In this document: one piece after another, positions 23,818 to 45,194 of the stretch
How positions within the stretch are numbered: the first letter of the stretch is position 1
How the letters are laid out: each line of letters opens with the position of its first letter
Assembly: GCF_003334305.1 (NCBI RefSeq)
Contig: NZ_QOWS01000003.1
DNA from: Escherichia coli
Lineage (GTDB): Bacteria; Pseudomonadota; Gammaproteobacteria; Enterobacterales; Enterobacteriaceae
Direction: 5' to 3' (one strand)
DNA: 64,000 bases
Notes under the pieces: model-generated
Seen by the model: only the letters and a program-made list of their open reading frames with translations
What the model was told of the DNA's origin: nothing
Database searches by the model: none
Translations under genes and position numbers: made by a program

Positions 23818-24283
23818 AACAAACAACTCCTTGTCCGGAGAACCCCAACGGGGAAAACGAAATTCAATACCGTCGGTAATGACGAAAGGCAGGCGAGAAG
23901 GACAAATGTACTGAATTTCATGTAATCAACCACACTGCCTGTGAACACACAGACAGAGAAATACCTTCTGACTCCAGGTCAGAATGTATAACGATTACAA
24001 ATAGTCATCAGCACATTACACCTCTTTAATTGATGGGTTGCATAGAAAATATACACCTTAAGTGTAATTAAAATTTGCGGTTAATCAAAAGAGCGCGGTG
24101 GAAAGGGGAATATCTGCCGGGTACAGGAAATGTAAAACGCGAGCCTGTTTCCGGAAAAATGTATCGTTTGCAGAGGAACACAAATAGCCTGGAAAGCGCC
24201 TCGGGGAACGAGAAATTGCCGGGTGAGAATGGTTTTGTTAGTCGCTACAGTCGGGCCATCTTATCTACAGGTGACGGATCGCC

Positions 24284-25228
24284 ATGACAAACTTCACAAC
24301 CAGCACGCCGCATGACGCATTATTTAAATCCTTTCTCACGCACCCTGACACCGCGCGGGATTTTATGGAGATCCACTTACCCAAAGATTTACGTGAACTG
24401 TGCGATCTCGACAGCTTAAAACTGGAATCCGCCAGCTTCGTCGATGAAAAATTGCGGGCGCTACACTCCGATATTCTGTGGTCGGTAAAGACCCGTGAAG
24501 GTGATGGTTATATTTACGTAGTGATTGAACATCAGAGCCGCGAGGATATCCATATGGCCTTTCGCCTGATGCGATATTCCATGGCGGTGATGCAGCGCCA
24601 TATCGAGCATGATAAACGCCGGCCGCTACCGCTGGTCATCCCGATGCTGTTTTATCACGGTAGCCGTAGTCCTTATCCCTGGTCCCTGTGCTGGCTGGAC
24701 GAATTTGCTGACCCGACCACCGCACGGAAGCTTTATACCGCAGCGTTCCCGCTGGTGGATGTCACTGTCGTGCCAGACGACGAGATTGTGCAGCACCGCA
24801 GAGTCGCCCTGTTGGAGTTGATCCAAAAGCATATTCGCCAGCGCGATCTGATGGGGCTTATCGATCAACTGGTAATATTACTGGTTACAGAGTGTGCTAA
24901 TGACAGCCAGATAACTGCGCTGTTAAATTACATTTTACTGACTGGCGATGAAGCGCGTTTTAAGAAGTTTATCAGCGAACTTACCCGTCGAATGCCACAA
25001 CACAGGGAGCGAATAATGACGATTGCAGAGCGAATTTATAATGATGGATGGCTGTTGGGGATGGAAAAGGGGAAAGAAGAAGGGGAACAACGCCTCCTTA
25101 GATTGTTGTTGCAGAATGGGGCAGATCCTGAATGGATACAAAAGATTACCGGACTTTCGACAGAGCAAATGCAGGCATTAGAGCAGCCCTTGCCTGAAAT
25201 CAAGCGCGATCCATGGATCGAATACTAA
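24284..25228 (+). CDS. rpnD: Recombination-promoting nuclease RpnD (YjiP/YjiQ), apparently intact
   Basis: 314-aa uninterrupted ORF; PD-(D/E)XK-like N-terminal region and C-terminal repeats characteristic of the Rpn (transposase_31-like) family. Confidence 0.75.
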
Positions 25229-25255
25229 TCAGAGACGGATGACAAACGCAAAGCT

Positions 25256-25351
25256 GCCTGATGCGCTACGCTTATCAGACCTACATTTCCTCTGCAATCT
25301 ATTGAATTTGCGCGGTTTGTAGGCCGGATAAGGCGTTCACGCCGCATCCGG
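25256..25351. repeat. BIME (two REP palindromes)
   Basis: gcctgatgcgctacgcttatcagacctac and gtttgtaggccggataaggcgttcacgccgcatccgg between convergent rpnD and yjiR. Confidence 0.6.
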
Positions 25352-25469
25352 TATGAACGAAGCACACTTTGCCTAAGCCATGCTGGAACGTGGCGATGAC
25401 CCTGCAAAGATACAACGAGTTACAGGCGATTCGTGAGAGGAAATCAGGTGCTTCGCCACTAATTCGAAT

Positions 25470-26882: not shown

Positions 26883-27058
26883 GCTGTATTCCTTATTTGG
26901 CCCATACAGAAAGAAAAACCGGTACAGATGAGGCTAAAAAACCGGATGCAGATGCTGTTTTAACCTGTCTGTATGTTAAATAAAACTAATATTTGCATCT
27001 GTATTGTGAACTGCCAGAAGGCGGATGATGAAGCCTCTGAAAGATGAGGAGGCAGCAG

Positions 27059-27574: not shown

Positions 27575-30115
27575 ATGAAAAATAGAAATCGTATGATCGT
27601 GAACTGTGTTACTGCTTCCCTGATGTATTATTGGAGCTTACCTGCACTGGCTGAGCAGTCGTCAAGTGAGATAAAGATTGTTCGCGATGAATACGGCATG
27701 CCGCATATTTATGCCAATGATACATGGCACCTATTTTATGGCTATGGCTATGTAGTAGCACAAGATCGCCTTTTTCAGATGGAAATGGCACGTCGCAGTA
27801 CTCAAGGGACTGTCGCGGAAGTGCTTGGCAAAGATTTTGTGAAATTTGATAAAGATATCCGTCGTAACTACTGGCCGGATGCTATCCGGGCGCAAATTGC
27901 TGCCCTTTCCCCAGAGGATATGTCCATTCTGCAAGGCTACGCTGATGGAATGAATGCCTGGATTGATAAGGTAAATACCAATCCAGAGACGCTCTTACCA
28001 AAACAGTTTAATACATTTGGCTTTACTCCTAAGCGCTGGGAACCGTTTGATGTCGCGATGATATTTGTGGGCACCATGGCAAACCGCTTCTCTGATAGCA
28101 CTAGCGAAATTGATAATCTGGCACTGCTAACGGCTTTAAAAGATAAATATGGTGTATCACAAGGCATGGCGGTATTTAATCAGTTGAAATGGCTGGTAAA
28201 CCCATCAGCGCCAACCACTATTGCCGTACAAGAGAGTAACTACCCACTTAAATTTAATCAGCAAAACTCGCAAACAGCAGCTCTGTTGCCACGCTACGAT
28301 TTACCTGCACCAATGCTTGACCGACCAGCAAAAGGGGCGGATGGCGCACTGCTGGCGTTAACAGCAGGGAAGAACCGGGAAACTATTGCTGCACAATTTG
28401 CACAGGGTGGTGCCAATGGTCTGGCGGGGTATCCAACGACCAGCAATATGTGGGTGATCGGCAAAAGCAAAGCCCAGGATGCGAAAGCAATCATGGTAAA
28501 TGGTCCGCAGTTTGGCTGGTATGCGCCTGCGTATACTTATGGTATTGGTCTGCACGGTGCTGGTTATGATGTCACTGGCAATACACCATTTGCCTATCCT
28601 GGGCTGGTTTTTGGTCATAATGGTGTGATTTCCTGGGGATCAACGGCAGGTTTCGGCGATGATGTCGATATTTTTGCTGAACGGCTGTCGGCAGAGAAAC
28701 CAGGCTACTACTTGCATAATGGTAAGTGGGTGAAAATGTTAAGCCGTGAGGAAACCATTACGGTGAAAAATGGTCAGGCAGAGACCTTTACTGTCTGGCG
28801 TACGGTGCATGGCAACATTCTCCAAACTGACCAGACGACACAAACGGCTTACGCTAAATCCCGCGCATGGGATGGTAAAGAGGTGGCGTCTTTGCTGGCC
28901 TGGACTCATCAGATGAAGGCCAAAAATTGGCAGGAGTGGACACAGCAGGCAGCGAAACAAGCACTGACCATCAACTGGTACTATGCTGATGTAAACGGCA
29001 ATATTGGTTATGTTCATACTGGTGCTTATCCAGATCGTCAATCAGGCCATGATCCGCGATTACCCGTTCCTGGTACGGGAAAATGGGACTGGAAAGGGCT
29101 ATTGCCTTTTGAAATGAACCCTAAGGTGTATAACCCCCAGTCGGGATATATTGCTAACTGGAACAATTCTCCCCAAAAAGATTATCCCGCTTCAGATCTG
29201 TTTGCCTTTTTGTGGGGTGGTGCAGATCGCGTTACGGAGATCGACCGACTGCTTGAGCAAAAGCCACGCTTAACTGCTGATCAGGCATGGGATGTTATTC
29301 GCCAAACCAGTCGTCAGGATCTTAACCTGAGGCTTTTTTTACCTACTCTGCAAGCAGCGACATCTGGTTTGACACAGAGCGATCCGCGTCGTCAGTTGGT
29401 AGAAACATTAACACGTTGGGATGGCATCAATTTGCTTAATGATGATGGTAAAACCTGGCAGCAGCCAGGCTCTGCCATCCTGAACGTTTGGCTGACCAGT
29501 ATGTTGAAGCGTACCGTAGTGGCTGCCGTACCTATGCCATTTGATAAGTGGTACAGCGCCAGTGGCTACGAAACAACCCAGGACGGCCCAACTGGTTCGC
29601 TGAATATAAGTGTTGGAGCAAAAATTTTGTATGAGGCGGTGCAGGGAGACAAATCACCAATCCCACAGGCGGTTGATCTGTTTGCTGGGAAACCACAGCA
29701 GGAGGTTGTGTTGGCTGCGCTGGAAGATACCTGGGAGACTCTTTCCAAACGCTATGGCAATAATGTGAGTAACTGGAAAACACCTGCAATGGCCTTAACG
29801 TTCCGGGCAAATAATTTCTTTGGTGTACCGCAGGCCGCAGCGGAAGAAACGCGTCATCAGGCGGAGTATCAAAACCGTGGAACAGAAAACGATATGATTG
29901 TTTTCTCACCAACGACAAGCGATCGTCCTGTGCTTGCCTGGGATGTGGTCGCACCCGGTCAGAGTGGGTTTATTGCTCCCGATGGAACAGTTGATAAGCA
30001 CTATGAAGATCAGCTGAAAATGTACGAAAATTTTGGCCGTAAGTCGCTCTGGTTAACGAAGCAGGATGTGGAGGCGCATAAGGAGTCGCAGGAAGTGTTG
30101 CACGTTCAGAGATAA
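27575..30115 (+). CDS. pac: Penicillin G acylase precursor (Ntn-hydrolase; signal peptide, alpha subunit, spacer, beta subunit)
   Basis: 846-aa ORF; N-terminal signal peptide; [10 protein letters not shown] motif containing the N-terminal nucleophile Ser of the beta subunit; recognised E. coli penicillin G amidase. Confidence 0.9.
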
Positions 30116-33949: not shown

Positions 33950-33955
33950 TGGAGC

Positions 33956-34468
33956 TTAAATCGCAGCTTCCATTTCCAGCATCACCGGATGGAAACGGCG
34001 TTTAAAGTAAATAAGTCCGTGACCTTCTGCACTGAGGATGATGTTTTTAATCTCCACCAGATACACCAGATGTGTGCCAATCGCCTGCACATCGCGGATC
34101 TCTCCTTCAAGACTGGCCAGCGAACCTTTCAGCACCGGCTGCGCCAGCGGACCTTTTTGCCAGCATGAGAGGCTAAAACGCTCTTCCATCGCCATGCCTG
34201 TCATGCCCGCGAAGTGGCGTGCCATCAGTTCCTGCTCATGGTTGAGGACGTTGACGCACAACTTACCGTTGCCCTGAAAAACCGGGTTCATCGCACTGTT
34301 GGCGTTAATGCACACCATCAGCGACGGTGGTGTATCCGTGACCGAGCAGACGGCCGTTGCCGTAATTCCGCATTGTCCGGCGTCGCCCTCGGTGGTGATA
34401 ATATTTACCGCTGCCGACAGGCTGGCCATTGCGTCACGAAAGCGCAGGCGTTGTTCATCTAATTGCAT
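33956..34468 (-). CDS. hpaC: 4-HPA 3-monooxygenase reductase component (flavin:NADH reductase)
   Basis: 170-aa ORF; recognised HpaC. Confidence 0.9.
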   Translation of the reverse strand: MQLDEQRLRFRDAMASLSAAVNIITTEGDAGQCGITATAVCSVTDTPPSLMVCINANSAMNPVFQGNGKLCVNVLNHEQELMARHFAGMTGMAMEERFSLSCWQKGPLAQPVLKGSLASLEGEIRDVQAIGTHLVYLVEIKNIILSAEGHGLIYFKRRFHPVMLEMEAAI

Positions 34469-34485
34469 CTTAACCTCCTGCTGCG

Positions 34486-36048
34486 TTATTTCAGCAGCTT
34501 ATCCAGCATGTTGATATCGTCGTTGTTGTGCAGGTGCGGCACAGTCCAGCCGTTCTGGTCGTATTCCGACAGGCAGCGATCAACCATCGCCATCATCTTG
34601 TCCATATTGCCGGAGCTTTGTGCCTGGCGCAGACACTGCAGGCGAATCTCATCCTGGCTACCGGAGTAGTTGATTTCATACAGTTCGTGACGACCACCAA
34701 ACTCGCTGCCAATGGCATCCCACATCAGTTTGAGGATCTTGATGCGCTGGACGTGATCCATACCGTTCGAACCGCGCACATACTTCGCCAGATACTGGTC
34801 GATCTGCGGATTGTTCAGGTCACGGGCACTGGAAGGGAGATAGATCAGGCCACTGGTAACGTTGCGTTCGATAATGTTTTTGATCTTCGCGTAGGCCATT
34901 GGTGCCAGTACGCGATAGGTTTGCAGTGCGGCATGATCCGGTAAATAAGCCCCGTTGACCCACGGCGTCGCTTCAGAACACATCGAGTCACTCAATGCCC
35001 AGAAGGTGTTGCGCCACGCCACCACTTCACCGAGATCGGCCTGCACACCACGGAACTCCAGGGTGCCGGTACATTCGAGTGATTTTTTCAGCAGTGCCGT
35101 AATGAAGTCGAGTTTCACTGCCAGGCGCACACAGGCTTGCAGCGGATACATACGGGCGAAACCGCCTTCCATCGTCCAGCGACGGCAGCGATCAAAATCG
35201 CGGTAGATCAGCACGTTTTCCCATGGGATCAGCACGTTATCCATCACCAGAATCGCATCGTTCTCATCGAAGCGGCTGGAGAGCGGGTAGTCGTACGGCG
35301 AGCCGGTAGCACCCGCGACCATCTCATAAGAGGCGCGGGAGATTAATTTCACGCCATCGGCATCCATTGGCGCAACGAACATCAGTGCGAAGTCCGGGTT
35401 TTCGCCCATTACTTGTGCCGAGCCGAAGCCAATCATGTTGTAGTGAGTCAGCGCCGAGTTGGTGGCAACCACTTTCGCACCGCTAACGATAATCCCGGCG
35501 TCAGTCTCTTTTTCCAGCTTGATGTAAACGTCTTTCACTTTATCGGTCGGCAAATGACGATCGATCGGTGGGTTAACAATCGCGTGGTTAAAGTAGAGGC
35601 CAGTTTCCTGAATACGGGTGTACCAGTTACGGGCGTTCTGCTCGAACTGACCGTAAAAGCCCGGATTCGCGCCCAGTGCGCAACCGAAAGCAGCTTTGTA
35701 GTCTGGGGTACGGCCCATCCAGCCATAGCTCAGGCGTGACCATTCAGCGATGGCGTCGCGTTGCTGGCGCAGGTCGTCGGCACTTTTCGCCACGCGGAAG
35801 AATTTATGGGTATAGCCGCCGCTGCCGGTGTCGGTGTTCCAACACAGAGAGTCCTGCATCTCCGGTTTGTGCAGCGCGTCGTACAGTTGGGCAACAGACG
35901 CTGCCGCATTACGAAATGCCGGATGAGTGGTGACGTCTTTCACTCGCTCGCCATAGATATAGATCTCGCGACCATCCTGCAGGCTTTTCAGATACTCTTC
36001 CCCGGTGAAAGGACGTTGGGTACTGGCGCGGAAATCTTCTGGTTTCAT
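34486..36048 (-). CDS. hpaB: 4-hydroxyphenylacetate 3-monooxygenase oxygenase component
   Basis: 520-aa ORF; recognised HpaB. Confidence 0.9.
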   Translation of the reverse strand: MKPEDFRASTQRPFTGEEYLKSLQDGREIYIYGERVKDVTTHPAFRNAAASVAQLYDALHKPEMQDSLCWNTDTGSGGYTHKFFRVAKSADDLRQQRDAIAEWSRLSYGWMGRTPDYKAAFGCALGANPGFYGQFEQNARNWYTRIQETGLYFNHAIVNPPIDRHLPTDKVKDVYIKLEKETDAGIIVSGAKVVATNSALTHYNMIGFGSAQVMGENPDFALMFVAPMDADGVKLISRASYEMVAGATGSPYDYPLSSRFDENDAILVMDNVLIPWENVLIYRDFDRCRRWTMEGGFARMYPLQACVRLAVKLDFITALLKKSLECTGTLEFRGVQADLGEVVAWRNTFWALSDSMCSEATPWVNGAYLPDHAALQTYRVLAPMAYAKIKNIIERNVTSGLIYLPSSARDLNNPQIDQYLAKYVRGSNGMDHVQRIKILKLMWDAIGSEFGGRHELYEINYSGSQDEIRLQCLRQAQSSGNMDKMMAMVDRCLSEYDQNGWTVPHLHNNDDINMLDKLLK

Positions 36049-36298
36049 GTCGACCTCTACAGTATTAATCGGAATACGATTGTTAATTTTGTGTGTTGTT
36101 TTTGTTATTTAATTGAAGCTTGCAGGGGCGATTACGGGAAGACACTTTTGGGACAATGGCTGGTACTTTTCAGGTCGGGTACGGTTTTGTGATCGAGGTC
36201 GCTTTTAGCGATTTTTAACGTTACTAAATCCCCTTGCTCCAGGCGGAGAAAGGGGAATAGCAGGTGGTGCCTGGTTTCCCGTTAAGGCTAAGGGATTT

Positions 36299-37189
36299 TC
36301 ACGTCACAGGTACTTTTTTGGCACGATAAGCACTGGGCGAGCAACCGACTAAGCGATTAAAAAAGCGCGCAAAATAAGCCGGATCTTTAAAACCGAGTTG
36401 CCAGGCAATATTGTTCACGGCGTTATCAGAAAACAGCAGCAGCCGCTTGGCTTCTCGTAGCTGCCTGTCGAAAATCAACCGTTTTGGCGGACGGTTGGCA
36501 AAGCGGCGGCAGATGTCCGTGAGTCGTGATTCGGTGATATGCAGTTCGTTAGCGTAATCCGGTACTGTCCAGTGCTGATGAAAATGGCTTTCAATCAGCA
36601 TATTAAAACGCTGGAACAGTTTTAATTCTCCGCGCATCCCGCTGGCGGCATGGTCGTCGAGTTTTGCATTACGCAGCAGTAGGGTGAACACTGCCTGTGC
36701 CAGTAGCGTCAGGGTGTGTTCCCGTCCAGGCAGTTGTTCCACCGATTCCCGCTCTATCAGTTGCCAATAGTGTTCCAGCGCCGCCAGTTCGTCGGGTTTA
36801 TCTGCCAGTGACAGGCAAATCCCCGGCAGGCCGAAGGTTTCCCGAGTGCCTGGATAAAGAACTTCCAGCAGGGGCCAGATCAGATCTTCCCGTACCGTCA
36901 ACACATGACCGTCGGCGTCAGACTCCGTAATAAACGCATGAGGTACTGACGGTGGCGTCAGGACAAACAGGGGCGCTTCCACCGAGTAGCGATGATCGTC
37001 AAGCTGTAGCTCAATCTGTCCGCTATTGAGGAAATGCATCTGAAAGTACTGTTCGTGGCGATGTGGCAGCATATGGCGGCCAAAAAAGGCCGCCATGCGG
37101 GCGAACGACTGATAATGCACATCGTCCGTGCCCAGGCTTTCATCGTACTCTTTGCTGATATCAATATTGGCAATCTGACGGTCACACAT
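36299..37189 (-). CDS. hpaA: AraC/XylS-family activator of hpaBC
   Basis: 296-aa ORF with C-terminal AraC-type HTH; cupin-like N-terminal region. Confidence 0.85.
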   Translation of the reverse strand: MCDRQIANIDISKEYDESLGTDDVHYQSFARMAAFFGRHMLPHRHEQYFQMHFLNSGQIELQLDDHRYSVEAPLFVLTPPSVPHAFITESDADGHVLTVREDLIWPLLEVLYPGTRETFGLPGICLSLADKPDELAALEHYWQLIERESVEQLPGREHTLTLLAQAVFTLLLRNAKLDDHAASGMRGELKLFQRFNMLIESHFHQHWTVPDYANELHITESRLTDICRRFANRPPKRLIFDRQLREAKRLLLFSDNAVNNIAWQLGFKDPAYFARFFNRLVGCSPSAYRAKKVPVT

Positions 37190-37198
37190 CGTCGTTCC

Positions 37199-38575
37199 TT
37201 ACGGGGTCGCTCGCGGACGGGAGGACTGCATTGGAATCGCCCAGATAATCCCCGCACCAATCACCAGCAGCGCGGCAACAAACCACAATCCACTGTTAAA
37301 GCTGCCGGTCAGATCTTTCAACCAGCCGATCATAAACGGACTTAACGCTGAACCAATGTTGCCAGTGGCGTTGATCACCGCAATACCGATCGCTCGTGCC
37401 CGCAGGCTGATGGACTGATCCGGTGTTGTCCAGAAAATCGCCATTGCGCTGAATGATCCGGTCGAAGCCATAATGATCCCCAGCATCTGGATCATGTTGT
37501 GATCAGTTGCCGAAGCCAGTAACCAACCTGCGGCAGCGAACAAATAAGGAAGGGCGGTGTGATGCCTTCGTTCCTGGCGGCGATCTGAGTGACGGCTCCA
37601 GTAGACCATCCCGAGAATGGTACAAATCTGCGGTACGGCGGCCAGCAGGCCGATGGTGATATTACTGCTGCCCTGATTAAAACTTTGCAGGATCTGCGGT
37701 GTCCAGATGCTGATCGCACTAAGTGTGTTGGTCAGGCAGAAATACGCCAGGGTATACATCATCACCACCGGAGTGAAGATCTCCCGCCACATACTGCGTT
37801 GTTGCATGGCGTGGTGGCTGATGGCTCCCTCTGGCTGAACCAGCGTCAGACGATCGTTATCCATCATCTCTTGCAGGCATTTTTTGTCTTCTTTCGTCAG
37901 CCACTTAGCTTTGTCCGGTGAGTCATCAAGCCAGAACCACACCATGACGCCGAGTAATACCGACGGGAAGCCTTCCAGCAAAAACAGCCACTGCCAGCCT
38001 TTTAATGCCATTACGCCATCCAGCGACAAAATGTAGCCGGAAACGAGCGATCCCAACGCTGTCGTTACCGGCATTGCAACCATAAACAAGGCGTTGGCAC
38101 GGGCGCGGAAATAGGCCGGAAACCAGAAGGTTAAATACAGCAGAATGCCAGGCAGAAAGCCGGCTTCGGTAATGCCAACCAGTATACGCAGTACGTACAA
38201 GCTGGTGGGGCCAGTGGCAAACATGGTGGCAGTAGAGGCGATGCCCCAGAGCACCATGATGGTGGCGATCCAGCGCCGCGCACCGACAATACTCAGCATA
38301 ATGTTGCTGGGAATGCCGAAGATGACATAAGCGGCATAGAACAGGGTGGTAGCGAGGCCAAACATGGTGGCGCTCAGACCGAGGTCGCGTCCCATCGTGA
38401 GTCCGGCAAAGCCGATGTTGATGCGATCAAGGAACGAGAAGATAAACAGCACGAACAGAAAGACGATCAGGCGGCGAAATAGCTTCTTAATAACCGCCTG
38501 TTGTCCGGCAGTCAGCGCTTTATGCTGATTCGCCGGATCGATACTCTCCGGTATGGCAGGTGAGGTGTCGCTCAT
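37199..38575 (-). CDS. hpaX: 4-hydroxyphenylacetate MFS transporter
   Basis: 458 aa from MSDTSPAIPESIDPANQ; 12-TM MFS permease; the longer ORF start is rejected. Confidence 0.85.
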   Translation of the reverse strand: MSDTSPAIPESIDPANQHKALTAGQQAVIKKLFRRLIVFLFVLFIFSFLDRINIGFAGLTMGRDLGLSATMFGLATTLFYAAYVIFGIPSNIMLSIVGARRWIATIMVLWGIASTATMFATGPTSLYVLRILVGITEAGFLPGILLYLTFWFPAYFRARANALFMVAMPVTTALGSLVSGYILSLDGVMALKGWQWLFLLEGFPSVLLGVMVWFWLDDSPDKAKWLTKEDKKCLQEMMDNDRLTLVQPEGAISHHAMQQRSMWREIFTPVVMMYTLAYFCLTNTLSAISIWTPQILQSFNQGSSNITIGLLAAVPQICTILGMVYWSRHSDRRQERRHHTALPYLFAAAGWLLASATDHNMIQMLGIIMASTGSFSAMAIFWTTPDQSISLRARAIGIAVINATGNIGSALSPFMIGWLKDLTGSFNSGLWFVAALLVIGAGIIWAIPMQSSRPRATP

Positions 38576-38624
38576 TTTTCTTCCTCTAATGGGATTTTTG
38601 TAGGGTACGACAAGGTTTATGGCG

Positions 38625-38745
<121 letters not shown>

Positions 38746-38749
38746 GGCA

Positions 38750-39538
38750 TTAATACACGCCGGGCTTCACGGCGGTGGCCTGCGCACCAAACCGTGCTGC
38801 CAGCGCTTCAGCGGCGCGGGCGAGCAGGGTGGTGTCAACGCCGACGGCGACAAACAGCGCGCCCAGTTCCAGATAGCGTTTTGCCAGTTGCTCATTGGCG
38901 ATCAGGATCCCCGGCGCTTTGCCCGCTTCGCGGATCTGCACGATCGCCTGCTCAATGGCGGCCTGTACTTCCGGGTGCTGCGGATTACCGGCATAACCCA
39001 TATCGGCGCTCAGATCCGCCGGGCCGATAAACACGCCGTCGACCCCTTCCACGTCCAGAATCTGCGGTAAGTTCTTCATTGCCTCACGCGTTTCGATCTG
39101 CACCAGCACGCACATTTGATCGTTGGCTTTTTGCAGGTAATCAGGAATGCGATTCCAGCGCGAGGCACGGGCCAGCGCACTGCCCACACCGCGAATACCG
39201 GCGGGGGGATAACGGGTGGCGCGTACCGCTTCACGGGCTTCGTCAGCGTTTTGAACCATCGGCACCAGTAAGGTTTGTGTGCCGACGTCCAGCAGTTGTT
39301 TGATTTGCACCGGATCGTTCCACGACGGACGTACTACCGGCTGGCTGGGGTAGGGCGCAATCGCCTGTAGCTGGGTGAGCACGGTTTGCACGTTATTCGG
39401 CGCGTGCTCACCGTCGATCAATAACCAGTCGAATCCTGCTCCGGCCAGTAACTCTGCGCTGTAGCTGCTACTTAGCCCCAGCCATAATCCGATCTGCGGG
39501 CGGCCTGCTTTCAGCGCCGCTTTAAAACTGTTTTCCAT
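38750..39538 (-). CDS. hpaI: 2,4-dihydroxyhept-2-ene-1,7-dioate aldolase (HpcH/HpaI)
   Basis: 262 aa from [20 protein letters not shown]; the ORF-track 5' extension is rejected. Confidence 0.85.
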
Positions 39539-39548
39539 CGTTCTCTCC

Positions 39549-40352
39549 TTAAACAAAGCGGCAGCTAATGGAGCCCATGTTGCCGTAATCGACGTGGAAG
39601 GTGTCGCCCTTACGCGCCGGAACCGGGCGGGTGAACGAACCGCCGAGAATGATTTGCCCGGCTTCCAGTTGTACGTCATACGGTGCGAGTTTGTTCGCCA
39701 GCCAGGCCACGCCGTTTGCCGGATGATTTAGCACGCCAGCGGCGACGCCGGTTTCTTCAATCACGCCATTGCGATACATCAGGGCGGAGATCCAACGCAG
39801 ATCCAGTTCGTCTGGTTTGATCGGACGACCGCCGAGGATCACTCCGGCGTTGGCGGCGTTATCAGAAATGGTGTCGAACACTTTGCGCGGGCGCTGGGTT
39901 TCCGGATCGATGTTGTGGCAGCGAGCGTCGATCAGCTCCAGCGCCGGGATCACGTAGTCCGTGGCGTTGTAGACGTCGAACAGCGTGCAGTTTGGCCCAC
40001 GCAGCGGTTTTGCCAGCACGAAAGCCAGCTCCACTTCAATGCGCGGCACGATAAAGCGATCGGTCGGGATATCGCTGCCATCGTGGAAGAACATGTCGTC
40101 CAGCAATGCACCGTAATCTGGTTCGCTGATTTGTGAGCTGGCCTGCATCGCTTTCGAGGTCAGACCGATTTTGTGGCCTTTCAGCGTACGGCCTTCGGCG
40201 ATTTTCAGTCGAACCCATTCACGCTGCACCGCGTAAGCGTCTTCGATGGTGATCTCCGGGTAATCCAGGGAGATCGCGCGGATCTGTTCGCGCTGTTTTT
40301 CTGCCTGATCCAGACGCTGGGCGATCAGGGTGTGGGTGTGTTTATCGAACAT
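39549..40352 (-). CDS. hpaH: 2-oxo-hept-4-ene-1,7-dioate hydratase
   Basis: 267 aa from [20 protein letters not shown]; recognised HpaH/HpcG. Confidence 0.85.
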
Positions 40353-40419
40353 AGCGATATCCTGTGGCATTGCCGGATGCGGCTGCGCCTTATCATCCGG
40401 CCTGGAAGCTGGTGCAAAT

Positions 40420-40800
40420 TTATTTAAACAACGCGTGCACGTTGTTTTGTTTAAAATTCAGCGTCGGGTGCAGCTCTGCAATCTCAAATGAAAGCGCCAG
40501 GTAACGGCTCTCCATCAGTGAGGCGAAGTGCGTTTTAATCAGATCAAACAGCATTTCGCCCACTTCCTGACGGCTTTCCAGGCTGCGCCCGCTGCCGATT
40601 TTTAGCGTCATATGCACAAAGGCGTAATCGTGCTTGCCATCAGCCATTTGCCAGGTATCGATCCAGTGCGCCCGGCTACGTATTCCCCCAAGCGGAAAAA
40701 TCCCCGTCGCCGCCAGTGCAGTGTTAACACTGGCAAACAGCTCAGGTAAGCGGGCTTCTTGACGAATATTTTCAGTACATTCCACGATAAAGTGCGGCAT
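40420..40800 (-). CDS. hpaF: 5-carboxymethyl-2-hydroxymuconate isomerase
   Basis: 126-aa ORF; recognised HpaF/HpcD. Confidence 0.85.
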
Positions 40801-40809
40801 GGTGGTTCC

Positions 40810-41661
40810 TTACGCGGGAAGCGGGAAAACAGCGTTAACCTGACCGGTGCCAGAGCTTGGGAATAGCTCGGTGATAAACTCCACCTTGCCGTCGTATTTA
40901 TCCCAGCCGAGCATCCCCAGCAGCATCACCGTGTCGTGCATATTGCCTTCGCCGTAGCAGTAGTCGGCGTACTCCGGCAGCATATTGCAGAACTCTTTGA
41001 ACTGGCCTTCGCGCCACAACTTCACCACGCGCTCGTCCATCTGGCGGTCGAACTCGCGGGTGTAGCTGTTCATCCCTTCTTCTGCACGCTGATCGTCAAT
41101 AAAGCGGTGCGATAACGAACCGCTGGCAAGGACCGCCACGGTGCCGTCGTACTGTTCGATCGCTTTCAGAATCGCTTCGCCCAGCTTGCGGCTGTCGGCA
41201 AAATCGTGAACCGTGCAGAAAGCCGAAATGGAGACCACTTTGAAGCGCTTGTCTTCATTCATGTAGCGCATCGGTACCAGCGTGCCGTATTCCAGTTTCA
41301 GGCTGGGAATGTTGTGCGCTTTTGCCCGCACGCCGAGCTTTAAGGCTTCATCGGCAATTAGCTGCCCCAACTCCGGGTTGCCCTCGTAGTTGTAGGTCAT
41401 GTCACGAATAAAATGCGGCAGCTCGTTGCTGGTGTAGACGCCTTCAAAATGGTCTGCACAGTTGATGTGATAAGCACTGTTGACCAGCCAGTGGGTATCG
41501 AAAACGATAATGGTATCGACGCCCATTTCCCGGCAACGCTTGCTGATCTCTTTATGCCCGTCGATCGCACCCTGGCGGCAACCGTGGTTTTTCCCTGGCA
41601 GTTCAGAGAGATACATCGACGGTACGTGCGTGATCTTGGCGGCTAACGCTAACTTACCCAT
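40810..41661 (-). CDS. hpaD: 3,4-dihydroxyphenylacetate (homoprotocatechuate) 2,3-dioxygenase
   Basis: 283-aa ORF; recognised HpaD/HpcB. Confidence 0.9.
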   Translation of the reverse strand: MGKLALAAKITHVPSMYLSELPGKNHGCRQGAIDGHKEISKRCREMGVDTIIVFDTHWLVNSAYHINCADHFEGVYTSNELPHFIRDMTYNYEGNPELGQLIADEALKLGVRAKAHNIPSLKLEYGTLVPMRYMNEDKRFKVVSISAFCTVHDFADSRKLGEAILKAIEQYDGTVAVLASGSLSHRFIDDQRAEEGMNSYTREFDRQMDERVVKLWREGQFKEFCNMLPEYADYCYGEGNMHDTVMLLGMLGWDKYDGKVEFITELFPSSGTGQVNAVFPLPA

Positions 41662-41662
41662 A

Positions 41663-43129
41663 TCAGACTCCCCATTTCGGAATTGGATGGTCGCCCATGG
41701 AAATGCAGACGTTCTTCATTTCCGCGAACACTTCGAAGCTGTACTCACCGCCTTCACGTCCGGTGCCGGAGGCTTTTACGCCGCCAAACGGCTGGCGCAG
41801 GTCGCGGACGTTCTGGGTGTTGACGAACACCATGCCTGCTTCAATGCCACGCGCCAGGCGTAACACTTTGCTGACATCCTGTGTCCAGATGTACGACGCG
41901 AGGCCGTACTCCACGTCGTTTGCCAGGCGTAAGCCTTCGGCTTCGTCTTTAAACGGCAGCAGGCAGGCGACCGGCCCGAAAATCTCTTCCTGGGCGACGC
42001 GCATACGGTTATCAACGTCTGCCAGCACCGTTGGGCGCAGGAAGTTGCCGCCTTTCAGGTGTGCAGGCAGGTCAGACGGTTTATCCGGGCCGCCCGCCAG
42101 CAGGGTTGCGCCTTCTTCAATGCCGAGACGGATATAGCCGGAGACTTTTTCCCAGTGTTGCTGGCTGATAAGCGCCCCAACCTGGGTATTTGGATCGTTC
42201 GGATCGCCCACGCGCAGACGGTTGGCGCGTTCGGCAAAGCGTTTAACGAATTCCGGGTAGATGCTCTGCTGAATAAAGATGCGCGAACCGGCGGTGCAGC
42301 GTTCGCCGTTGATCGAGAAGATGGTGAACAGGGCGGCGTCCAGCGCGCGTTCAATATCAGCATCTTCAAAAATCAGCACCGGCGATTTACCGCCCAGTTC
42401 CATGGAGTATTTTTTCAGCCCGGCGTTTTTCATGATGTTGCGCCCGGTGGCGGTACCGCCGGTGAACGACACGGCACGCACGTCATGATGACGAACCAGC
42501 GCATCCCCTGCGGTTGCGCCGTAGCCCTGTACCACGTTCAGCACGCCTGCCGGAATACCGGCTTCCAGCGCCAGCTCACCCAGGCGGTCAGCGGTCAGCG
42601 GGGAGAGTTCCGACATCTTCAGCACCGCGGTATTGCCCAGCGCCAGACACGGCGCGACCTTCCAGGTGGCGGTCATAAACGGCACGTTCCACGGCGATAC
42701 CAGCGCACAAACGCCCACCGGCTGCACCAGCGTGTAGTTGAGCATCTTGTCGTCAACCGGATAGGTCTTGCCGTTCATCTGCTGGCAGACTTCCGCGAAA
42801 AATTCAAAGTTGTGAGAAGCGCGTGGGATCAACACATTTTTGGTCTGATGGATCGGCAGGCCCGTGTCCGCGGTTTCCATCGCGGCGATCTCCGGTACGT
42901 TCTGGTCGATCAGATCGCCCAGACGGCGCATCAGGCGCGCGCGCTCTTTCATCGGCAGATTGGCCCATTTCGGGAACGCCTCTTTCGCTGCCGCTACCGC
43001 CTGATTGATCTCCGCTTCACCGCCGGAGGCCACATCCGCCAGCACTTCACCCGTTGCCGGATTGGTAGTCTGGAAGTAGTCGTTACCTGCAACATTTTTA
43101 CCGTTGATCCAATGATTTACTTTTTTCAT
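41663..43129 (-). CDS. hpaE: 5-carboxymethyl-2-hydroxymuconate semialdehyde dehydrogenase
   Basis: 488-aa ORF; aldehyde dehydrogenase family; 1-nt gap to hpaD and 4-nt overlap with hpaG. Confidence 0.9.
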   Translation of the reverse strand: MKKVNHWINGKNVAGNDYFQTTNPATGEVLADVASGGEAEINQAVAAAKEAFPKWANLPMKERARLMRRLGDLIDQNVPEIAAMETADTGLPIHQTKNVLIPRASHNFEFFAEVCQQMNGKTYPVDDKMLNYTLVQPVGVCALVSPWNVPFMTATWKVAPCLALGNTAVLKMSELSPLTADRLGELALEAGIPAGVLNVVQGYGATAGDALVRHHDVRAVSFTGGTATGRNIMKNAGLKKYSMELGGKSPVLIFEDADIERALDAALFTIFSINGERCTAGSRIFIQQSIYPEFVKRFAERANRLRVGDPNDPNTQVGALISQQHWEKVSGYIRLGIEEGATLLAGGPDKPSDLPAHLKGGNFLRPTVLADVDNRMRVAQEEIFGPVACLLPFKDEAEGLRLANDVEYGLASYIWTQDVSKVLRLARGIEAGMVFVNTQNVRDLRQPFGGVKASGTGREGGEYSFEVFAEMKNVCISMGDHPIPKWGV

Positions 43130-44415
43130 TTCGCTGTTTCCTCACTCACAATTCGGTTCACCAGGCGGCCCACGCCTTCTACTTCCACCACCACTTCATC
43201 GCCAGGCACCACGTCAGATAAGCCTTTTGGTGTGCCGGTGGCGATCATGTCGCCCGGATTCAGGGTCATAAATTCGCTTAAGTAGGCGATCAGGAAGGGC
43301 ACGCTGAAGATCAGATCGGCGGTGGTGCCTTGCTGGCGTAACTCGCCGTTGACGAAGGTGCGAAGGGTCAGATTATGCGGGTCCGGGATCGCCTCTTTCG
43401 GCACGATGGTTGAAAGCATCGGCGTCAGTCCGTCGCGGCTTTTGACCCGCAGGTTAGGGCGGTAGTAGTTTTCCAGATAGTCGCGAATGGCGTAGTCGTT
43501 ACACACGGTGTAGCCCGCGACATAATCCATGGCATCGGCTTCGCTGACGTTACGCGCCTGTTTGCCAATAACTACCACCAGCTCCGCTTCATAGTGCATG
43601 TATTCAATATTGTTTGGACGCACGGAGGTCTGGTTATCGCCAGTGAGGGTATTTGGCGCTTTCAGGAACACCAGCGGTTCTTCCGGTGGCTTAAATTCCA
43701 GTTCGCTGGCGTGGTCGGCGTAGTTCAGGCCGAGGGCAAACAGCGTGCCGTGCGGGTGTGGCTGCGTTGGGAAGCTCTTGCGCGTGGTCACTTCACGTTC
43801 GTCCACTACCGGATTTTCCAGCGGCGGGAAACCTTCTGCGAGAACACGAACGCGATCGCCTGGCTGTATTTCCACGCGCGCCTGTGGCGTGCCGAGCAGA
43901 ATGGCATCGCCTGGATTCAGTGTGGCAAATTCGCTCAGGGCGCTCAGCAACTGCGCGGCGTTACGTTGTAAATCGGCGGTATTCCAGTGATCGGCAGGAC
44001 GCCCGTTGATCTCGGTATAGATGGTCAGATTATCGACATTGCTGAGAGCCACGGTTTCGCCAATGGGGCAGAATCCATCACGACATTTTGCTTTGATTGC
44101 CGGGCGGTAAAAGCTCTCTTCCGGCAGGCTGACGTCGTTAGCCAGCGCATATCCGGCGATGTACTCTGCCGCATCTTCTTCACGTACTTTCGTCGCCGTT
44201 TTTCCCACAATCAGCGCAACAGTCGCACCGCTCAGTACCTTTTCACCCTGTGGAAAGGGAATCGGTTCACCGCAACCAATCACCGTATTGCGCGGTTTAA
44301 TAAACCAGACCGCAGTTTTAGGCGGGGCTTTGTAGGGGGATTGCTGGAACGCTTCCTGCCATGCATCAAGTTGGCTGCGATGGTTCAACGCTACGGCGAA
44401 GATAGTGCCTTTCAT
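43126..44415 (-). CDS. hpaG: Bifunctional OPET decarboxylase / HHDD isomerase
   Basis: 429 aa from MKGTIFAVALNHRSQ with GAGGAG RBS; two FAH-like halves. Confidence 0.9.
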   Translation of the reverse strand: MKGTIFAVALNHRSQLDAWQEAFQQSPYKAPPKTAVWFIKPRNTVIGCGEPIPFPQGEKVLSGATVALIVGKTATKVREEDAAEYIAGYALANDVSLPEESFYRPAIKAKCRDGFCPIGETVALSNVDNLTIYTEINGRPADHWNTADLQRNAAQLLSALSEFATLNPGDAILLGTPQARVEIQPGDRVRVLAEGFPPLENPVVDEREVTTRKSFPTQPHPHGTLFALGLNYADHASELEFKPPEEPLVFLKAPNTLTGDNQTSVRPNNIEYMHYEAELVVVIGKQARNVSEADAMDYVAGYTVCNDYAIRDYLENYYRPNLRVKSRDGLTPMLSTIVPKEAIPDPHNLTLRTFVNGELRQQGTTADLIFSVPFLIAYLSEFMTLNPGDMIATGTPKGLSDVVPGDEVVVEVEGVGRLVNRIVSEETAK

Positions 44416-44440
44416 TACCACTCCTCGGATTCGATCATTT

Positions 44441-44464
44441 TAATCATTAATATGTTAATGATTA
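44441..44464. promoter_or_regulatory. Perfect palindrome in the hpaG promoter region, probable HpaR (MarR-type) operator
   Basis: TAATCATTAA-TATG-TTAATGATTA, 26-50 nt upstream of the hpaG ATG; a partial copy (ATTAATGATTTT) occurs at about 44652..44667 near the hpaR start. Confidence 0.4.
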
Positions 44465-44686
44465 CTTTTATTCCCGATTGCGTAGTTTGGCAAAAGTAAG
44501 TGATGTAAATGTGATCTAATTAACAAACTATTTACATTTAAAGATAATAAAATATTAAATATCAGCAAGTTAACAAAACATGCTCAATTTTGATAAAATG
44601 AAGAATTGCAGGGGCAGCGCAGTCCCGGTAACGTGATGATTAACTGTTTCTATATTAATGATTTTGAATTTTTCAGGGGAAAGATA

Positions 44687-45133
44687 ATGCACGACTCTCT
44701 AACCATTGCGTTGCTCCAGGCGCGAGAAGCGGCGATGAGTTATTTTCGCCCAATCGTTAAACGGCATAATTTGACTGAGCAACAGTGGCGCATCGTGCGT
44801 ATTCTGGCGGAAAGCCCATCAATGGATTTTCACGATCTGGCGTATCGCGCCTGCATTTTGCGCCCAAGCCTGACCGGGATCCTTACGCGGATGGAACGCG
44901 ACGGTTTAGTGTTGCGATTAAAGCCGATCAATGATCAGCGGAAGCTCTATATCTCGCTAACCAAAGAGGGGCAGGCGCTGTATAACCGCGCTCAGACACA
45001 GATTGAAGAAGCCTATCGGCAGATTGAAGCTCAGTTTACTGCCGAGAAAATGCAACAGTTAACCCATCTGTTAGAGGAATTTATTGCTCTGGGCAATTCC
45101 CGACAAGAAGACATCCCGGGCGATAATGAATAA
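44687..45133 (+). CDS. hpaR: MarR-family repressor of the hpa meta-cleavage operon
   Basis: 148 aa from MHDSLTIALLQAREAAMSYF; winged-helix MarR-like; divergent from hpaG. Confidence 0.85.
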   Translation: MHDSLTIALLQAREAAMSYFRPIVKRHNLTEQQWRIVRILAESPSMDFHDLAYRACILRPSLTGILTRMERDGLVLRLKPINDQRKLYISLTKEGQALYNRAQTQIEEAYRQIEAQFTAEKMQQLTHLLEEFIALGNSRQEDIPGDNE

Positions 45134-45194
45134 CTTTTTAGTATCTGATAACCAGCGCCTGGTTTTTCCATGGATGGCGGGTTACACCTTTTCA

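Follow-up and report, generated by a model that had tools for sequence, protein, structure and literature searches.

A common intact allele of Escherichia coli rpnD with a predicted nested antitoxin frame and four C-terminal repeat units

Two lines of work describe the closest relatives of the gene considered here. Zhong et al. (2023) reported that rpn genes are toxin-antitoxin pairs carried in one reading frame, in which an internal start yields a small protein, RpnS, equal to the C-terminus of the long product, RpnL (PMC10400941). RpnS binds RpnL and blocks it, provided that the two have matching repeat numbers; what counts for this specificity is how many 4-aa repeats the first helix contains, a figure that varies between strains (PMC10400941). 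Each of the five K-12 rpn genes was found to have an internal start and to give a small RpnS protein, transcription was also seen to begin inside all rpn genes, and the long forms RpnA_L and RpnD_L went undetected in MG1655 (PMC10400941). Neutralisation was demonstrated for RpnA, RpnB and RpnC, and phage defence for the plasmid-borne RpnP2 only (PMC10400941).

The second line concerns the activity of the long proteins. RpnA (YhgA), the biochemically characterised member, is a divalent-cation-dependent endonuclease in vitro that leaves 3'-OH ends by hydrolysis; its substitutions D11A, D63A, E82A and Q84K abolish all three phenotypes, Q84A and R94A abolish recombination alone, and D165A, within the PDDEI motif, is hyperactive (PMC5350276). 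In the case of RpnD, the K-12 gene had to be repaired, and the repaired version, yjiPc, was synthesised by Kingston et al. in 2015 (PMC4498929). When it was induced, RecA-independent recombination rose about 5-fold and about 90% of recA cells died (PMC4498929, PMC4664550), and in the 2017 study the repaired K-12 RpnD gave 4.7-fold recombination and 94% killing and ranked with the earliest inducers of SOS (PMC5350276). Basal K-12 recombination stayed unchanged when the four active rpn genes, including rpnD, were deleted (PMC5350276), a result to be read with the caveat that K-12 rpnD is already null.

In this study, we have analysed an rpnD gene lying in a 64,000-nucleotide stretch of E. coli DNA, hereafter the window, to whose positions the coordinates below refer; gene features are on the plus strand. 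The ORF listing and the sequence show an uninterrupted frame of 314 codons at 24284..25228, with an ATG start and a TAA stop at 25226-25228, which we call RpnD_L. Its product matches the Pfam family Transposase_31 (PF04754, YhgA-like) at residues 8-210 (24305..24913), covering positions 1-202 of the 203 of the model with E=1.3e-86 and containing the PD-(D/E)XK nuclease core, and it scores 173 bits with TIGR01784, the NCBIfam model of the Rpn family, for which the curated cut-off is 52.1. As these two family matches are accompanied by identical annotated coding sequences elsewhere, the frame is not a chance ORF. The protein is WP_000181170.1 of RefSeq, present in E. coli W, where the coding sequence has the same relative coordinates, and in strain CH4799. 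Its exact sequence recurs among unrelated isolates. At the DNA level, at least 30 complete genomes carry an rpnD that is 100% identical to the 945 nt of the window (all 30 among the matches listed, including W, HS and SE11, with an intact coding sequence there), and 246 genomes carry one that is at least 99% identical. The original prediction, made from the letters of the DNA alone, was right to describe a single continuous 314-aa frame and to assign it to rpnD of the Rpn/Transposase_31 PD-(D/E)XK family. A sequence search of the full protein against solved structures gave no match at E<=0.01, and the PADLOC 2.0 defence models gave none to the window RpnD.

The gene is the ortholog of K-12 b4584. 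The order mdtM-rpnD-yjiR-yjiS is the same in the window, in MG1655 and in E. coli W, and the protein is closest to K-12 RpnD (93% identity) among the paralogs compared, the other two being RpnA (57% identity) and RpnC (48%). RpnA itself is a paralog found elsewhere, between feoC and bioH; it shares with the window protein the domain, the tested residues and an aligned internal start, but the window protein reaches 379 bits with the RpnA equivalog model against a cut-off of 583.

Comparison with K-12 has highlighted two structural differences, a nonsense codon at position 104 and, towards the 3' end, an indel of 24 nt. MG1655 rpnD (b4584, formerly yjiP b4338 plus yjiQ b4339) is 921 nt long, is flagged as a pseudogene, and breaks into ORFs of 103 and 190 aa that correspond to the former yjiP and yjiQ. 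That the K-12 locus is split in this manner and inactive had been given correctly in the original prediction. The suggestion made there of a frameshift was not upheld, as pairwise DNA alignment and the translations keep the window and K-12 genes in frame throughout and place the lesion in a single C to T change, by which the Gln104 codon CAG (window 24593..24595) becomes an in-frame amber TAG; one base therefore splits the K-12 gene. The same allele exists with CAG in strain C51, a bovine isolate, which is one base from K-12 and is annotated with an intact coding sequence. The amber codon would also explain why RpnD_L was undetected in MG1655. In supE44/glnV44 cloning strains Gln should be inserted at this codon (L001 7308-7310), and such strains would be expected to restore the toxic RpnD_L in part.

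Apart from these differences, K-12 RpnD occupies the same slot, its catalytic residues do not differ from those of the window protein, and the internal Shine-Dalgarno sequence and ATG are shared. It has 306 aa rather than the 314 aa of the window protein, which carries two extra 4-aa repeat units, and seven of the last nine residues differ (IKRDPWIEY in the window, RERYSWLKS in K-12). The divergence is concentrated at the C-terminus, where, of the 29 alignment positions that differ, 22 fall within the part shared with the short product, the 8-residue indel being counted. In general terms, the window protein is a common RefSeq allele, and it is chiefly the repeat number and the C-terminal tail that set the other natural alleles apart from it.

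The nuclease domain retains every position for which function has been tested in RpnA. By alignment to RpnA, Asp11 (24314..24316) corresponds to D11, whose change to alanine abolishes RpnA activity, and Asp63 (24470..24472) to D63, whose D63A mutant lacks activity in vivo as well as in vitro (PMC5350276). Glu82-His83-Gln84 (24527..24535) forms the (D/E)XK-type motif, in which a family-specific Q stands in place of K, Arg94 (24563..24565) corresponds to R94, and the PDDEI motif at residues 164-168 (24773..24787) lies in a non-core part of the domain (PMC5350276). The conservation of catalytic residues, which the original prediction had named as one of the checks to be made, is complete for D11, D63, E82, Q84, R94 and PDDEI alike. 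Neither an intact K-12 gene of equal length nor a loss of catalytic residues from the window copy, the two observations on which that prediction was to have been abandoned, was found.

Against two intact alleles of other backgrounds, residues 1-244 show dN/dS of 0.055-0.076 (dS about 0.19, dN about 0.01), as compared with 0.3-0.8 for the C-terminal 70 residues in the same comparisons. Purifying selection on the nuclease domain is strong, and the sequence evidence as a whole favours an active nuclease in the window RpnD_L. The synonymous divergence between rpnD alleles over residues 1-244 is about 0.18-0.23, a high figure for E. coli against typical values, and the alleles look mosaic; both features are consistent with frequent recombination at rpnD.

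The original prediction described the nuclease gene correctly and overlooked both a second frame nested inside it and the difference in repeat number from K-12. An AGGGAG sequence resembling a Shine-Dalgarno element, read at 25004..25009, lies 6 nt upstream of an in-frame ATG, from which a 70-aa frame runs to the common stop (25016..25228). This frame, rpnD_S, encodes a predicted antitoxin that is the C-terminal domain shared with RpnD_L. Its first residue, Met245, aligns with Met244 of RpnA, where the internal start has been confirmed by mutation, and the internal ATG is invariant in all eight rpnD alleles aligned. An in-frame internal start preceded by a ribosome-binding site and opening a 70-aa ORF is the arrangement that distinguishes the RpnL-RpnS systems, and at the sequence level rpnD of the window has it.

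The repeats follow shortly after this start. Four 12-nt units, encoding four 4-aa repeats, occupy 25046..25093, where K-12 has two (GYIK GEQR), the 24 extra nucleotides lying at about 25051-25074. The block begins at Gly255, 10 residues past Met245 and within the published range of 8-20 residues from the internal Met, and its number of units varies from strain to strain as in the described systems: two in K-12 and C51, three in 08-3918, four in the window and five in EcN_Sk. The lengths of the alleles step accordingly by 12 nt, with 921, 933, 945 and 957 nt for 2, 3, 4 and 5 units. Judging from these alleles, the 24-nt difference from K-12 is an instance of the known hypervariability of rpn genes and no defect. 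Tandem Repeats Finder found nothing in 24900-25250, the 12-nt units being too few and too diverged, and the repeat structure becomes visible only when alleles are compared.

A possible promoter for a short transcript is found upstream of the internal ATG by 87 nt, in the form of a sigma-70-like site (24900..24929, ATGACA and TAAATT with an 18-nt spacer and an upstream TG). It is a consensus match at a level not above chance, the promoter scan having returned two sigma-70-like sites where 2.5 were expected.

When RpnD_S was compared with solved structures, the sole family member retrieved was RpnA_S (7TH0), the one structure yet solved for the family, to which RpnD_S is barely alignable (E=0.2, non-significant). 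Residues 19-40 of RpnD_S (window 25070-25130) gave summed phmmer matches to designed ankyrin-repeat proteins, with whole-sequence E down to 9e-8. Ankyrin homology was considered for these higher-ranked matches and rejected, as they cover a short 'LLLQNGADP' stretch and each stretch is non-significant; they are best read as a resemblance to a short helix-turn motif and not as homology.

All together, these data make us highly confident that the window gene is chromosomal rpnD in its common, unbroken form, with a predicted toxin, RpnD_L, and a nested antitoxin, RpnD_S. The intact frame, the orthology, the catalytic residues, the purifying selection, the conserved internal start and the repeat polymorphism are observed directly in the DNA compared here. 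The nuclease activity and toxicity of RpnD, its neutralisation by RpnD_S and a role in defence are expected by analogy with RpnA, RpnB, RpnC, RpnP2 and the repaired K-12 RpnD. The likeness to the RpnL-RpnS systems extends to the long nuclease, the nested in-frame small ORF and the strain-variable 4-aa repeats about 10 residues past the internal Met; the difference is that neutralisation has been demonstrated with RpnA/B/C and defence with RpnP2, whereas RpnD of the window is known from its sequence.

On this basis a model can be proposed for the roles of the two products. RpnD_L would be a PD-(D/E)XK-type endonuclease that requires Mg2+ to cut DNA and, like other such enzymes when overproduced, could damage DNA, induce the SOS response and raise RecA-independent recombination. 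Translation from the internal Shine-Dalgarno sequence and ATG at Met245 would give RpnD_S, a 70-aa, presumably helical protein equal to the C-terminus of RpnD_L, which would bind RpnD_L and keep it inactive, so that a single gene could encode a complete toxin-antitoxin pair of the kind proposed for phage defence. The specificity between partners would depend on how many 4-aa repeats the first helix carries, four units in the window and two in K-12.

How usual such an intact copy is was judged from complete E. coli genomes, 4243 of 5426 of which contain rpnD. When 30-mers centred on codon 104 were used with megablast, under conditions in which only the exact allele can seed a match, CAG was found in 3446 genomes and TAG in 339; the remaining rpnD genomes, about 460, have other SNPs inside the 30-mer and were left unclassified. 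In the evenly spaced sample of TAG genomes that was listed, nearly all are laboratory derivatives of K-12 (MG1655, W3110, DH5-alpha, J53, C600, JM109, TOP10, BW25113, MC4100 and NEB strains). Twelve further records, picked from an evenly spaced listing among the rows without known status, comprised 11 intact coding sequences (921, 945 or 957 nt) and one that is frameshifted. The intact rpnD is the norm of the species and the broken K-12 copy the exception, as Kingston et al. had already reported in 2015 (PMC4498929). The view taken in the original prediction, in which the intact copy of this strain was what deserved attention, has to be turned round.

Loss of the long frame is nevertheless not confined to K-12. 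The amber TAG at codon 104 is also present in strains EcN_Sk (L007) and H10 (L006). In EcN_Sk the first 732 nt of rpnD equal those of K-12, whereas the 3' end is of another kind, with five units, and this combination suggests that recombination within rpnD lies behind the allele. H10 has a window-type 945-nt allele with the amber codon, and the nearest SNPs on either side of the codon change, 19 nt before and 11 nt after it, are of the window type; these flanks suggest either an independent C to T event or a conversion tract shorter than 30 nt. In the O157:H7-type gene, shared by 279 genomes including EDL933, a 25-nt tandem duplication (CGATTGCAGAGCGAATTCATAATGA, present twice) directly follows the internal ATG of rpnD_S. 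It was seen in E. coli O157 strain 10671 (L009, positions 1033-1083), and its junction is common to all 279 genomes. The duplication truncates RpnD_L at 260 aa and leaves a complete RpnD_S-like ORF (MTIAERIHNDGWLL...) in the +1 frame, starting from the duplicated ATG at position 1058 of L009. In PGAP annotation the O157:H7 gene is labelled merely 'frameshifted'.

Two further lesions are individual. The rpnD of strain CT265 is frameshifted, and that of strain BS-01 is interrupted after codon 151 by a 117-nt insertion (L010, about 754-870) containing GTGAATCCCCAGGAGCTTACA, which we take to be an ERIC/IRU-like element. The K-12 and O157 lesions together account for 618 of the 4243 genomes, a count in which both lineages are heavily over-sampled, as they are among complete genomes generally.

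The recurrence of these lesions invites a more adventurous reading, which we consider rather unlikely and offer as speculation: that E. coli lineages repeatedly and non-randomly disarm rpnD, removing the toxin and keeping an 'orphan' RpnD_S antitoxin, perhaps directed against incoming or paralogous Rpn toxins. The grounds for it are that the same CAG to TAG change at codon 104 occurs in K-12 and, apparently independently, in H10, and that the O157:H7 duplication spares the RpnD_S frame. In that case the intact four-repeat pair of the window might be a working defence module, tuned in its specificity and placed beside the restriction-island slot.

The same lesions bear on an improbable explanation, namely that the window gene is open but silent or decaying, being little transcribed or translated, or crippled by some allele-specific substitution, and as non-functional as the K-12 pseudogene. 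The losses of rpnD_L by amber codon (K-12, EcN_Sk, H10), by the 25-nt duplication (279 O157:H7-type genomes), by the ERIC-like insertion (BS-01) and by frameshift (CT265) imply that rpnD_L is dispensable; in addition, the promoter scan gave no sigma-70-like site upstream of the RpnD_L frame, and the Shine-Dalgarno sequence before the ATG at 24284 is weak. However, a nuclease-domain dN/dS of about 0.06 at a dS of about 0.19 records long-term selection on the protein, every functionally tested residue is kept, the coding sequence is intact in 11 of the 12 further records, and the exact protein is encoded by unrelated isolates. We conclude that silence or decay is improbable, and the reading as an intact nested toxin-antitoxin gene is retained.

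This gene is an ordinary allele, already annotated and already published, the intact form in 2015 and the nested layout in 2023. Beyond correct annotation its significance is slight; RefSeq already holds the exact protein as an intact coding sequence. The comparison is of more use for the reference strains: K-12 and O157:H7 both carry lineage-specific knock-outs of rpnD_L, and neither represents the species at rpnD. Rpn genes should be read as nested toxin-antitoxin pairs with a repeat number that varies between strains, and not as transposases.

That rpnD is, as many annotations have it, a mobile-element transposase (Transposase_31 or 'ISNCY family transposase'), which moves itself or had a part in moving the pac and hpa islands nearby, is very hard to credit: its names in Pfam and NCBIfam, its position adjoining two variable regions and a weak 23-nt inverted repeat around it (24156-24178 and 25287-25309, 78% complementary) speak for it, but all genomes examined have the gene in one and the same slot, between mdtM and yjiR, the number of copies per genome being 1 in the median and 2 at most, and the 'ISNCY family transposase' equivalog model NF007418 gives 392 bits against a curated cut-off of 583. 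The inverted repeat was rejected as a pair of transposon ends, since K-12 does not conserve the right arm and no target-site duplication was seen. The gene accordingly shows none of the marks of an insertion-sequence transposase, be it terminal repeats, target duplication, variable location or score. Zhong et al. likewise saw neither terminal repeats nor duplications at rpn genes, nor any autonomous transposition of them (PMC10400941), and RpnA cuts by hydrolysis to 3'-OH ends, strand-transfer activity being without report (PMC5350276).

The variable surroundings of the gene are real, as the original prediction had it, and comparison with the gene order of K-12 and W confirms that rpnD lies near the pac/ICR and hpa regions. 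In K-12 the interval between yjiS and yjiA holds the restriction island (ICR) of about 16 kb, with yjiT, yjiV', mcrCB, symER, hsdSMR and mrr. In the window this slot (27575-30115) is filled by a single ORF for penicillin G acylase (pac, 846 aa), as in E. coli W. Further on, the hpa cluster for 4-hydroxyphenylacetate, of about 11 kb (about 33950-45180), lies between btsT and tsr, again as in W, and these two genes are adjacent in K-12. Kingston et al. stated that rpnD is not part of the restriction island (PMC5350276), and between rpnD and these neighbouring regions we found no evidence of a causal tie.

The window is collinear with E. coli W, but with only 98.0-99.6% identity outside rpnD, and so stems from a strain close to W and distinct from it. 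The convergent spacer between rpnD and yjiR, outside the gene, contains REP-type repeats (25277..25358, no strand assigned), matched by the Rfam families ES036/CssrF at 25277-25319 on the minus strand (39.9 bits, just above the gathering score of 37.6) and naRNA4 at 25322-25358 (34.4 bits, below the gathering score). The right-hand part of this spacer (window 25240-25360) differs from K-12. In the yjiR-yjiS spacer, at about 26920-26962, the window is longer than E. coli W by about 45 nt, as judged from the change of offset between BLAST blocks.
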